A stretch of 2,486 bases of DNA, from the NCBI GenBank assembly GCA_000004695.1, contig CH709176.1:1-2486 (forward strand), read 5' to 3'. The position numbers were made by a program, and so were the translations under genes. The notes below the pieces were generated by a model, which was not told the DNA's origin, searched no databases, and saw nothing but the letters and a program-made list of their open reading frames with translations. This DNA is from Dictyostelium discoideum (Eukaryota). Positions 124 through 2,486 of this stretch are shown piece after piece; the first letter of the stretch is position 1, and each line of letters starts with the position of its first letter.

Positions 124-147
124 ACACAGCGAAGAAAAAACCACCTT
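124..147 (+). repeat. Direct repeat R, copy 1 (ACACAGCGAAGAAAAAACCACCTT)
   Basis: 24/24 identity with 2435-2458. Relatively GC-containing for this window, so chance recurrence is very unlikely. The 3' end (CCACCTTTAAA) is itself a member of the NNCCTTTAAAAT motif family. Confidence 0.85.
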
Positions 148-167
148 TAAATTCGCTTTAAATTAAA

Positions 168-185
168 TTTAAATTTGCTTTAAAG
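168..185 (+). repeat. TTTAAATTTGCTTTAAAG motif, copy 1 (+ orientation)
   Basis: 18/18 identical to 835-852. The 13-mer core AAATTTGCTTTAA also occurs reverse-complemented at 726-738 and 2457-2469. Confidence 0.8.
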
Positions 186-199
186 TCCTGAATTAAAGC

Positions 200-271
200 A
201 ATTTTAAAGGTAATTTTAAAGGTAATTTTTAAGGTTACTTTAAAATTACCTTTAAAATTACCTTTAAAATT
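200..271. repeat. 72-bp near-perfect palindrome made of 12-bp tandem units (ATTTTAAAGGTA x2-3 on the left arm, TACCTTTAAAAT x3-4 on the right arm)
   Basis: Arms 200-224 and 247-271 are exact reverse complements (25 bp). The 22-bp spacer 225-246 is itself symmetric except for 3 central pairs. The right arm continues with a further 11-mer variant to about 285. Both arms are flanked by GTCCTGA (185-191 and 309-315) in direct orientation. Confidence 0.9.
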
Positions 272-293
272 ACCTTTAAATTACCTTTTTAAT

Positions 294-337
294 CGCTTTA
301 AAAGCGAGGTCCTGAGTTAGAAGCCGTTAATTAACGG
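294..337. promoter_or_regulatory. Cluster of two short GC-anchored palindromes: CGCTTTAAAAGCG (294-306, near-palindrome) and CCGTTAATTAACGG (324-337, perfect 14-bp palindrome)
   Basis: Seen directly. CCGTTAA|TTAACGG is a perfect dyad. This is a rare GC-containing symmetric site in an AT desert, immediately next to the large palindrome. Its function is unknown. Confidence 0.5.
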
Positions 338-378
338 ATAACCCTTTTTAAATTTTTTTTTTTAATCCCCCTCAAAAA

Positions 379-447
379 TTACCAAAAGGGATTCGATCCC
401 CCGACCCTCTATCAAAGGGTAGTCTCATCAACCATTACACCATTTGA
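379..447 (-). tRNA. tRNA-like remnant or fragment, possibly derived from a tRNA-Ile(GAU). It carries an anticodon-arm-like and a T-arm-like stem-loop, but I could not build a complete cloverleaf
   Basis: Minus strand reads ...gagact ACCCT ttgatag AGGGT c GGGGG atcgaat CCC(tt) ttggtaa... This gives a 5-bp stem with a 7-nt loop that has T at loop position 2 and A at loop position 6, so anticodon GAT. It is followed by a G/C stem closing the loop ATCGAAT, one mismatch from the TTCGAAT T-loop consensus. This is the only GC island in the 5' kb. Against: the variable region would be only ~1 nt, no D-arm or acceptor pairing can be found, and GAU is an organellar or bacterial-type Ile anticodon. Confidence 0.25.
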
Positions 448-550
448 TTGCTTTGATGAAAAATTTAAAAATGATAGAATATTTTATCCCCATTTTTTTG
501 TTCTAAAATTAGATCTTTTTTATTAAAAACCTTAAATTTATGTTTAAAGG

Positions 551-615
551 AAATTTAAATTCACTTTAAATCTACTTTAAATCTACTTTAAATCTACTTT
601 AAATCCTATTTAAAA
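551..615 (+). repeat. 11-bp tandem array, about 5 copies of TC(T/A)ACTTTAAA, ending in the variant TCCTATTTAAAA
   Basis: Seen directly: tcactttaaa tctactttaaa tctactttaaa tctactttaaa tcctatttaaaa. The period is 11 bp. Confidence 0.9.
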
Positions 616-621
616 TTAATT

Positions 622-662
622 TAAAATAAATTTTAAAGGTATTTTTAAATATCTTAAAAATT
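622..662 (+). repeat. ~105-bp-spaced direct repeat, copy 1 (AAATTTTAAAGG(T/A)ATTTTTAAATATCTTAAAAATTA)
   Basis: 628-662 matches 733-767 with one mismatch (t640 vs a745). Copy 2 lacks one 12-mer unit further downstream. Confidence 0.75.
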
Positions 663-722
663 ATCTTAAAAATTACCTTTAAAATCACCTTTAAAATCAC
701 CTTTAAAATTGCTTAAAAATTT
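651..722 (+). repeat. 12-bp tandem array, 6 units: ATCTTAAAAATT x2, ACCTTTAAAATC x2, ACCTTTAAAATT, GCTTAAAAATTT
   Basis: Seen directly. The ACCTTTAAAAT units are the same 12-mer family as the right arm of the palindrome at 247-285. Confidence 0.9.
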
Positions 723-725
723 ATT

Positions 726-738
726 TTAAAGCAAATTT
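726..738 (-). repeat. AAATTTGCTTTAA core motif, reverse orientation
   Basis: TTAAAGCAAATTT is the exact reverse complement of the 13-mer core at 171-183 and 838-850. Confidence 0.7.
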
Positions 739-780
739 TAAAGGAATTTTTAAATATCTTAAAAATTACCTTAAAAATGA
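727..780 (+). repeat. ~105-bp-spaced direct repeat, copy 2
   Basis: See copy 1. Copy 2 continues ATTACCTTAAAAATGA, a one-unit-shorter version of 661-686. Confidence 0.75.
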
Positions 781-834
781 ATTTTTTAAACGCGGCTTTA
801 AATTCAATTTAAATCCAATTTAAATCAACTTTTC

Positions 835-852
835 TTTAAATTTGCTTTAAAG
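835..852 (+). repeat. TTTAAATTTGCTTTAAAG motif, copy 2 (+ orientation)
   Basis: Exact 18-mer match to 168-185. Confidence 0.8.
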
Positions 853-991
853 GTGCATTTTTCTTTGCTGTGTAATTTTTATTTAGTATATTGTTGATTA
901 ATTTCTCTGCCACTTGGTTGGAACGAAAAATTCGAAATGGATTGGATTGGAACAAATTGAAACAAATTGAAACAAGTTTAATTTAATGTTT

Positions 992-1053
992 AAAAAAAAA
1001 AAAAAAAAAAAATTTTTTTTTTTTCTTTTTTTCTTTTTTTTTTTTTTTTTTTT
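992..1053. repeat. Homopolymer junction: A21 (992-1012) abutting a ~41-nt T tract (1013-1053, C at 1025 and 1033)
   Basis: Seen directly. A(n)T(n) is self-complementary. Read on the minus strand, the T tract is an oligo(A) run of ~41 nt with two G interruptions, so this is two poly(A)-like tracts tail to tail. Confidence 0.9.
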
Positions 1054-1110
1054 CCATTGGGACCTATCATTGGATAATTAAATTAAATATAATTAAATCA
1101 GCAAATTTTA

Positions 1111-1128
1111 AAAAAGATCGAGTTATCC
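1111..1128 (+). repeat. Left arm of an 18-bp perfect inverted repeat (AAAAAGATCGAGTTATCC)
   Basis: Exact reverse complement of 1531-1548 (GGATAACTCGATCTTTTT). The arms are about 400 bp apart. Confidence 0.85.
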
Positions 1129-1530
1129 GGAATAAATTCAGTTTTTTCCAAAAAAGTTTTTTTTTGAAAAATTTTTCACTTTTCATATGTTTTTTTTTTT
1201 TTTTAATAAAACACATTATTTAAAACAAAAATTTTAAATAATATTAAACAATATTTGTTAACAACTATCGTAGAATTAAATTTGGTTGTATTTATTGAGA
1301 AATAAAGAAAAATATAAAAAAAATGAACTTCGAAAAAAAAGGGACTTCAAAAAAAAAAAACTACATATGAATAATCAATCCTTTATTTGAGCCCCGGTAT
1401 TTTTGATTTTTTGTCAATCATACTATTTATTTTATTATTTATTTTAATTGTGAATAAATAAAAAAATTAAAAAAAAAAAAAAATAATATGGCCAATAAGA
1501 ATTTTTTCGCGAAAAGATTGATCTTTTCTG

Positions 1531-1548
1531 GGATAACTCGATCTTTTT
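1531..1548 (-). repeat. Right arm of the 18-bp perfect inverted repeat
   Basis: See the left arm. The internal segment 1129-1530 contains the GC cluster GAGCCCCGGTA (~1390-1400), duplicated ACTTCGAAAAAAAA / ACTTCAAAAAAAAAAAA (1328-1360) and an A15 run (~1470-1485). Confidence 0.85.
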
Positions 1549-1689
1549 CAAAATAACTTTTTTTTGTTCAGAATTCAATTATTCACAGAAAGGTCCATTG
1601 TTGTTATATAGGATTATTTCAATAACAAATAAATTAATTGTAAATAAAAATAATTATTTGAACAAAAATCCAATGAAATTTCAGAATTT

Positions 1690-1713
1690 AAAAAAAAAAA
1701 AAAAAAAAAAAAA
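1690..1713 (+). repeat. A24 homopolymer
   Basis: Seen directly; followed by GTGTATATATATTTAA. Confidence 0.95.
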
Positions 1714-1793
1714 GTGTATATATATTTAATTTGTTTTTTATTTAAATAATTTAATAGTAAAAAATGATAAAATCAAATTTTATTATTAATATT

Positions 1794-1817
1794 TTATTAT
1801 TATTATTATTATTATTA
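1794..1817 (+). repeat. (TTA)8 microsatellite
   Basis: Seen directly: ttattattattattattattatta. Confidence 0.95.
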
Positions 1818-1835
1818 TAATCGGATTTTTTGACA

Positions 1836-1860
1836 GTGGGAGAGTTTGGGACACTGGGGA
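1836..1860 (+). other. G-run island (GTGGGAGAGTTTGGGACACTGGGGA) immediately after the microsatellite
   Basis: Three GGG(G) runs within 25 nt in an otherwise G-poor window; internally repetitive (TGGGAGA / TGGGACA / TGGGGA). Confidence 0.6.
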
Positions 1861-2039
1861 AATCAAAAAAAATTATTCAGCCAGTAATGGAATTCTGTAC
1901 AATTATTTGCCTTATTGTATTATTCACCCTACTTTTTTAAGCCTATAAAAATAAAAAAATTAAACCAAAATACATAATTATTAGAAAATTACCTGCCAAT
2001 TCAGAGTAAATATTTACGGTCTAGTGTAATGAATAATGA

Positions 2040-2290
2040 TTAAAAAAGAGATAAATTAAAGCAAATACAAACACGAATAAATTAAAAAAAAAATAAAAAA
2101 AAAAATAAATTCTTAGGTTTAAAAAAAAAAAAACTAAATTTGGTTTAAATTAATAAGATTTATTTATTTATTTTTTAAAAAAAAAAACAATTTTTAGGTG
2201 TACCAAGATTTATTTTTAAAAAAAAAAATAAAAAAAAATTAAATTCCAAAAAAAAAAAAAAGGAAAAAAATAAAAAAATAAAAAAAAATA
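2040..2290 (+). repeat. Strand-asymmetric A-rich low-complexity block with oligo(A) runs of 10-14 and degenerate ~50-90-bp direct repeats (TTAGGTTTAAA... / TTTTAGGTGTACCAAGATTTATTT... / TTTTAGGGACCTG...)
   Basis: The + strand is overwhelmingly A here, whereas 1-120 is T on the + strand. AAGATTTATTT recurs at ~2155 and ~2205, and TTAGG(T/G) recurs at 2113, 2195 and 2296. Confidence 0.7.
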
Positions 2291-2339
2291 AAATTTTAGG
2301 GACCTGATAAAATTTTATCTTTTACAAATATTTTAATCA

Positions 2340-2434
2340 CGATAATAACATTAGACTTTTAAAAGGATAAATACGTACGGATGCCCGAACGAACGTCAAT
2401 AGTTAACAGGTGGTACAATGGCCAAAGGATCAAC
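2340..2434. other. Most complex, GC-richer (~40-45%) segment of the window, immediately 5' of R copy 2; function unknown
   Basis: Contains CGTACG, GAACGAACG, GTTAAC, GGTGGTACAATGGCCAAAGG. A 33-codon ATG ORF (2381-2482, + strand) runs through it into the repeat but is too short and basic to call. Confidence 0.4.
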
Positions 2435-2458
2435 ACACAGCGAAGAAAAAACCACCTT
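2435..2458 (+). repeat. Direct repeat R, copy 2 (truncated by the window edge shortly after)
   Basis: Identical 24-mer to 124-147. The upstream flanks of the two copies differ (T-rich at copy 1, GC-richer complex sequence at copy 2), so the repeat boundary lies at or near ACACAGCG. Confidence 0.85.
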
Positions 2459-2472
2459 AAAGCAAATTTAAA
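2457..2472 (-). repeat. TTTAAATTTGCTTTAA motif, reverse orientation, adjacent to R copy 2
   Basis: TTAAAGCAAATTTAAA is the reverse complement of TTTAAATTTGCTTTAA. The longer stretch 2460-2484 (GCAAATTTAAATTTAATTTAAAGCG) is the exact reverse complement of 154-178. Confidence 0.8.
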
Positions 2473-2486
2473 TTTAATTTAAAGCG

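Follow-up and report, generated by a model that had tools for sequence, protein, structure and literature searches.

The DNA analysed here is a stretch of 2486 bp from Dictyostelium discoideum (contig CH709176.1, positions 1 to 2,486 of the forward strand; referred to below as the window), with a GC content of about 20% and a composition like that of AT-rich eukaryotes and unlike that of prokaryotes or phages. No open reading frame of more than 49 amino acids begins from a start codon within it, and its longest stop-to-stop frame (78 amino acids) is of low complexity. The window carries a block of short tandem arrays built on the palindromic hexamer TTTAAA, three copies of a unique 23-mer (here called R), and an 18-mer, TTTAAATTTGCTTTAAAG, which, together with its 13-mer core, AAATTTGCTTTAA, is the subject of this report. 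A preliminary description of this DNA had taken the motif to be a recognition site in its own right. Our analysis relates it to the arrays and to R, and shows that a dispersed and eye-catching k-mer can be the by-product of tandem repeats, segmental duplication and a small inversion.

Two exact copies of the 18-mer lie on the plus strand of the window, at 168-185 and 835-852, and the 13-mer core has four exact copies, two on the plus strand (starting at 171 and 838) and two on the minus strand (726-738 and 2457-2469). Extended to full length, the minus-strand copies match the reverse-complement 18-mer with one mismatch at 2455-2472 and with two mismatches at 724-741. Every copy listed in the preliminary description is exact at the position given there; the octamer GCTTTAAA, said to occur about eight times, does recur, with a count of seven (five on the plus strand and two on the minus strand). 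Throughout the window, AAATTTGCTTTAA is the only 13-mer with at least four copies that are all dispersed and none of them tandem. The statement that this recurrence is far beyond chance is sound in that the motif is non-random, with 20 matches to the 18-mer at up to three mismatches against 0.23 expected from dinucleotide shuffles; the shuffle is nevertheless the wrong null for this excess, because the motif sits within phased TTTAAA arrays.

The 18-mer is composed of TTTAAA, TTTGC, a second TTTAAA and a final G, that is, of two palindromic cores with the spacer TTTGC between them, and it is a dimer of the 11-mer family TTTAAA-T[TC][CT][GA][CA]. This family and the 12-mer unit TTTAAA-ATTACC are one inserted base and one or two substitutions apart. 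The window contains 48 TTTAAA hexamers; 35 of them fall within 146-851, against 2.6 expected from base composition, and outside the array block there are 11 against 7.2 expected. Neighbouring cores in the block are spaced by 11 or 12 bp or by multiples of these. The spacers at 11-bp spacing are TTCGC, TTAAA, TTTGC, TTCAC, TCTAC (three times), TCCTA, TTCAA, TCCAA and again TTTGC, among which TTCGC, TTTGC, TTCAC, the three TCTAC, TTCAA and TCCAA form one family; those at 12-bp spacing are ATTACC, ATCACC, GGTAAT, GCAAAT and similar sequences. Within two mismatches of the 13-mer there are 29 sites (25 in arrays), with AAATTACCTTTAA, the commonest 12-mer unit, and AAATCTACTTTAA, an 11-mer, among them. 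Because of these near-matches to common units and the shared TTTAAA core, the 18-mer belongs to the array family: it is a variant unit of the 11/12-bp tandem repeats and not a stand-alone site. The earlier view that it is distinct from the 12-mer arrays is therefore abandoned, since an 11-mer dimer that is one or two mismatches from array units is part of the same family.

R (CACAGCGAAGAAAAAACCACC) has a GC content of about 40%, and its three copies lie on the plus strand at 125-145 and 2436-2456 (copies A and C) and, as a variant with three mismatches, on the minus strand at 852-872 (copy B). Copy B, which is absent from the preliminary description, is directly abutted by the 18-mer at 835-852. 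Copies A and C are identical over 24 of 24 nt (124-147 and 2435-2458), and longer segments are shared as well: 835-873 and 2435-2472 (reverse-complemented), which span both R and the 18-mer, are 90% identical in a 39-nt alignment; 123-151 and 846-874 (reverse-complemented) align over 29 nt, also at 90% (26/29); and the 30 nt of 154-183 recur in reverse complement, without a mismatch, at 2457-2486. These 39-, 29- and 30-nt segments make three of the four exact 13-mers parts of longer R-containing repeats, which agrees with the linkage of the motif to R noted before. Its proposed placement at array edges likewise holds for the three copies beside R; it does not hold for the copy at 726-738, which occupies the centre of an internal palindrome. 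The motif is neither conserved apart from its flanks nor distinct from the background repeats, its copies lying in shared segments of 30-39 nt. We also considered whether the window is, as a whole, a tandem repeat or a circular overlap (R to R, 2311 bp), and rejected this because the sequences upstream of the two R copies are unrelated.

Copies A and C, with the sequences that follow them, are one sequence of at least 57 nt that differs by an exact inversion of 27 nt. Read from the R side, copy B (852-874) and copy C (2435) continue as R-CC-TT(T)AAAGCAAATTTAAA, and copy A (124) as R-TTTAAATTCGCTTTAAATTAAATTTAAATTTGCTTTAAAG. When 152-178 is reverse-complemented, 120-192 becomes identical to 2431-2486 (the window end) except for one T, and the alignment score of copy A against copy C rises from 31 to 49. 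The flipped stretch is flanked by TTTAAA cores at 146 and 179, its equivalent in copy C being 2458-2484, and the inversion is bounded by the 7-bp inverted repeat CTTTAAA/TTTAAAG. Since TTTAAA is its own reverse complement, arrays built on it can flip the spacers between cores. Spacer flipping likewise accounts for the two internal palindromes of the array block, the one at 193-288, in which (GGTAAT)n opposes (ATTACC)n with 87% complementarity, and the one centred near 704-720, which contains the fourth copy of the 13-mer. Thus, the occurrence of the motif in both orientations follows from a segment duplication with inverted ends together with one exact 27-nt inversion, and a discrete recognition site, as proposed earlier, is neither needed nor demonstrated, because duplication of longer segments and a single inversion account for the copies.

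The repeat relationships and the inversion are observed, whereas for the mutational mechanism we draw on what is known of similar events. Small inversions associated with hairpins, and template switching at quasi-palindromes, are established in non-coding DNA, for example in plastid spacers, and a segment of 27 nt is too short for ordinary recombinase-mediated switching. By analogy, we infer that the inversions in the window are mutational template-switch or hairpin events. The likeness lies in the exact 27-nt flip between short inverted repeats and in spacer flips that create local palindromes; the difference is that the inversion is deduced here from two paralogous copies in one window and not from orthologous alleles. 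An exact inversion between two 6-bp palindromic cores offers a clean, small example of how arrays with such cores generate local palindromes.

R on the plus strand at 124 and R on the minus strand at 874 mark the exact outer borders of the array block, and together they delimit a module of 751 bp whose parts are listed in the table. On balance, we consider it probable that R and the 18-mer form the composite end sequence of this repeated, non-coding module. A composite end of about 40 nt (R abutting CTTTAAAGCAAATTTAAA) would be present in three copies, of which those at 124 and 874 would be inverted and bracket the phased TTTAAA arrays, the internal palindromes and a central tRNA-like relic, and the third, at 2435, would begin another such module at the window edge. 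Both orientations of the motif would then stem from module ends that are inverted repeats and from flipped asymmetric spacers between TTTAAA cores, with template switching or hairpin-associated inversion as the likely source of the flip and slippage as the likely source of array growth. When 115-885 is folded as single-stranded DNA, the two inverted R copies form the closing stem, with a free energy of -134 kcal/mol against -68 +/- 4.8 kcal/mol for shuffles (z = -13.9). The centre of the module (305-540) is non-repetitive.

Features of the 751-bp module, of the third R copy and of phage occurrences of the 18-mer
Feature	Position	Strand or arms	Remarks
R copy A (ACACAGCGAAGAAAAAACCACCT)	124-146	+	Left inverted end of the 751-bp module; preceded by TA
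11-mer array TTTAAA-TTCGC, TTTAAA-TTAAA, TTTAAA-TTTGC, TTTAAA-G	146-185	+	Contains the 18-mer at 168-185; 152-178 inverted relative to copy C
Palindromic 12-mer array, (AATTTTAAAGGT)x3.8 opposing (CTTTAAAATTAC)x4.3	193-288	arms 195-241, 242-288	87% complementary
Degenerate tRNA-like unit in the central non-repetitive part	379-449	-	A box TGGTGTAATGG, B-box-like GGATCGAATCC, T runs downstream
11-mer array TTTAAA-TCTAC and variants	543-619	+	Orientation as in 146-185 and 797-851
12-mer arrays with internal palindrome	620-785	arms 623-695, 713-785	Degenerate motif 724-741 (13-mer 726-738) central
11-mer array, spacers TTCAA, TCCAA, TCAAC	785-852	+	18-mer 835-852 at its end
R copy B, variant (CACAGCAAAGAAAAATGCACC)	852-874	-	Right inverted end; abuts the 18-mer; followed by TA
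R copy C	2435-2457	+	24/24 identical to copy A
Array beside R copy C	2455-2486	-	Reverse-complement 18-mer 2455-2472 abuts R; ends with the window
18-mer in IMG/VR contigs	L055 4485-4502; L059 10672-10689; L056 35-52; L058 461-478		

The anatomy of the module is observed; mobility, and any binding of its ends by a protein, would be deductions from it. Within the favoured explanation, it is possible, if doubtful, that the module is a dispersed repeat like the miniature inverted-repeat transposable elements (MITEs), with R and the first TTTAAA as its terminal inverted repeats. Like the MITEs of the Stowaway/Tc1-mariner type, the module is short (751 bp, below about 800 bp), AT-rich and non-coding; it has imperfect inverted ends of about 29 nt (26/29) that pair as the closing stem of the fold, TA on both flanks and a strong hairpin potential, and an extra copy of the end sequence lies nearby. 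Unlike MITEs, its interior consists mostly of phased 11/12-bp tandem arrays, and the third R lacks the TA. If the module is MITE-like, R and the 18-mer taken as one unit would be the only plausible sequence-specific protein target in it, and R-bounded modules, if true, would represent a new MITE family in an AT-rich protist.

Several points weigh against this explanation. Just 1.5 modules are visible in the window, which also limits the comparison with MITEs. The TA dinucleotides on both sides of CACAGC...GCTGTG are compatible with a target duplication, but TA is self-complementary, so that they could equally be two further base pairs of the inverted repeat, and the bases before the third R are CA. 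At the two ends of the module, the 11-mer arrays are direct and not inverted, and the true terminal inverted repeat is only about 29 nt long. The fourth exact 13-mer, at 726-738, is beside no R and would have to be array homoplasy under this explanation. Finally, the 90% conservation of R with the 18-mer could reflect selection for binding and not recent duplication.

The internal organization of the module also recalls the Foldback (FB-type) transposons, with which it shares a unique outer end, short tandem arrays further inward, a non-repetitive centre and the self-complementarity seen in the fold. Unlike in Foldback transposons, the arrays at 146-185, 543-619 and 797-851 are all on the plus strand, only R and one TTTAAA are inverted, and one arm is about 180 nt long, the other about 330 nt. 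A classical foldback element is excluded by the direct orientation of the 11-mer arrays at the ends. Immediately inward of the left array, two small perfect palindromes, TCGCTTTAAAAGCGA and CCGTTAATTAACGG, lie at 291-305 and 324-337 beside GGTCCTGAGTT, and AGTCCTGAATT, which is similar to GGTCCTGAGTT, lies at 184-194, after the 18-mer.

Two further explanations were weighed. In the first, which we regard as unlikely, everything from 146 to 851 and from 2457 onward is minisatellite made by slippage; local duplication would have repeated the TTTGC spacer and R by accident, and there would be no module, mobility or function. The periodicity and the unit variants are what slippage predicts, the short inversion between palindromic cores bears the mark of mutation, and there is no coding or RNA gene; against this stand the three copies of R, a unique 23-mer with about 40% GC, two of them inverted ends placed exactly at the block limits. 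Moreover, 1.56 kb of unrelated sequence separates the third R from the array block, which local slippage does not explain. Quite unlikely, in our estimate, is the second, namely that proteins recognize the 13-18-mer as a discrete site at array boundaries, where it would serve as a boundary, nucleation or recombination site independently of the arrays. Such a site is suggested by the four exact 13-mers and their standing as the sole non-tandem 13-mer with at least four copies, by the location of three of these four no more than 22 nt from R, and by copies B and C, in which R and the 18-mer are retained while the sequence immediately beyond them diverges. The motif is, however, only one or two mismatches from general array units, longer duplicated segments contain its copies, and its position relative to R varies, as it abuts R in copies B and C and is 22 nt away and flipped in copy A; in addition, the copy at 726-738 is not at a boundary.

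A more elaborate alternative, which we hold to be very unlikely, is an extrachromosomal architecture, like that of ribosomal DNA (rDNA) spacers or plasmids, in which R and the arrays would flank an A/B-box unit of the RNA polymerase III (Pol III) type with a role in replication (origin or fork pausing) or in recruitment of TFIIIC. It arises by analogy from the unit at 379-449 on the minus strand, which has an A box, TGGTGTAATGG, that fits TRRYNNARYNG and, 33 nt downstream, the B-box-like GGATCGAATCC, followed by TTTT and TTTTT (about 360-378, minus strand). A true tRNA at this place is rejected, since the unit scores 14.8 bits with the Rfam tRNA model against a gathering score of 29, and ARAGORN finds no tRNA at default settings and calls the unit only under relaxed thresholds. 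The extrachromosomal rDNA palindrome of D. discoideum contains tRNA-like A/B-box loci in gene-free, non-coding duplicated segments, located at 25439, 26202, 26963 and 27726, i.e. about 763 bp apart; the criteria used there were an A box TRRYNNARYNG 30-60 bp upstream of GTTCRANNC and a +1 G located 7 nt before the A box (PMC5391098). The window resembles these loci in having an A box and a B-box-like sequence at tRNA-like spacing, T runs and no other tRNA identity, and in having repeated modules of about 750 bp (751 bp, against the 763-bp locus spacing) in AT-rich DNA that is gene-free over 2.5 kb. In addition, AGGGTCGGGGGATCGAATCCCT in the window is similar to AGGGTCGCGGGTTCGATTCCCC, an rDNA target of D. 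discoideum given in PMC3159450, and this likeness is confined to generic tRNA T-arm sequence. Unlike the published loci, the window has a B box, GATCGAATC, with one mismatch to GTTCRANNC and no exact B box anywhere, and the base 7 nt upstream of its A box is A and not the +1 G. The published primers for the D. discoideum rDNA loci (the B-box loci and three loci studied by circular reverse-transcription PCR, cRT-PCR) have no match in the window, and because of this the window is excluded as one of those published loci. The 5' spacer of Tetrahymena rDNA, which is built of tandem domains of roughly 430 bp, was also dropped as a counterpart, the window being without such domains.

If the window did belong to an extrachromosomal element of the rDNA type, the combination of R, arrays and A/B-box unit could be a candidate for a cis-acting element in replication or in the recruitment of TFIIIC. 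A fuller version of this idea, highly improbable in our judgement, concerns an rDNA-spacer-type or other extrachromosomal replicon of an AT-rich protist. In it, R and the 18-mer would be bound as an end or boundary element; the TTTAAA arrays, prone to form cruciforms or coated with protein, would serve as a scaffold for a Pol III/TFIIIC A/B-box unit at which forks are paused or an origin is set; and the 27-nt flip would be a recurrent and possibly programmed event and no single mutation. For the Dictyostelium rDNA loci themselves, a role in replication or TFIIIC recruitment is only speculated on by Spaller et al. (PMC5391098).

The arrays also have some likeness to the iteron arrays of plasmid and viral origins, in that short direct units phased at about one helical turn lie near AT-rich DNA and inverted repeats. 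Unlike iterons, the 11-12 bp units conserve only a 6-bp palindromic AT core, and the base composition and homopolymer runs are eukaryote-like. An iteron-type origin was rejected because the window has no initiator gene or coding sequence and no plasmid or phage similarity, and a scan of the window for DnaA boxes gave only partial TTATCC strings and no TTATCCACA. With the whole window as the query, blastn returned only a 72-nt A-rich chance match among phages and no match among plasmids, and scans of the window for bacterial promoters and terminators were at chance level. No Rfam family exceeds its threshold in the window, and an RNA family was rejected for the palindrome at 193-288, to which Rfam microRNA matches are those of a generic hairpin, far below the gathering scores. 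The pattern of R was found in none of the IMG/VR contigs, in at least 19 GTDB genome contigs and in at least 35 JGI metagenome contigs; the GTDB and JGI occurrences are all single, have no likeness beyond 22-37 nt and are chance matches. Neither related DNA nor the window itself turned up among the phages, plasmids, IMG/VR contigs, GTDB genomes and JGI metagenomes searched, and of the 18 products of at least 30 amino acids that the window could encode, the 14 looked up by exact sequence have no record. In IMG/VR, the tRNA-like string has no match and the 18-mer has five, each single and in an unrelated phage hairpin. In these phage contigs the 18-mer supplies the AT portion of hairpins with GC clamps (for example, CTCCC-TTTAAATTTGCTTTAAA-GGGAG), from which it follows that the 18-mer is itself a quasi-palindrome with two TTTAAA cores around a 5-nt loop.

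Outside the module, the window holds a second, unrelated inverted-repeat pair, AAAAAGATCGAGTTATCC, at 1111-1128 (plus strand) and 1531-1548 (minus strand), which encloses about 400 nt and forms the closing stem when 1085-1570 is folded (z = -4.1); GTTATCC is also present at 334-344 on the minus strand. Homopolymer-like tracts comprise A21 abutting a 41-nt T-rich run (T12-C-T7-C-T20) at 992-1053, A24 at 1690-1713 and a 76-nt A-rich tract at 2218-2293, and simple repeats comprise (ATTGAAACAA)x3 at 946-975 and (TTA)x13 at 1780-1818; a composition of this kind may recall that of dictyostelids. A G-rich island at 1836-1860, with the short direct repeat ACAGTGGGAGA ... ACACTGGGGAA, is the sole strongly G-skewed spot in the window.

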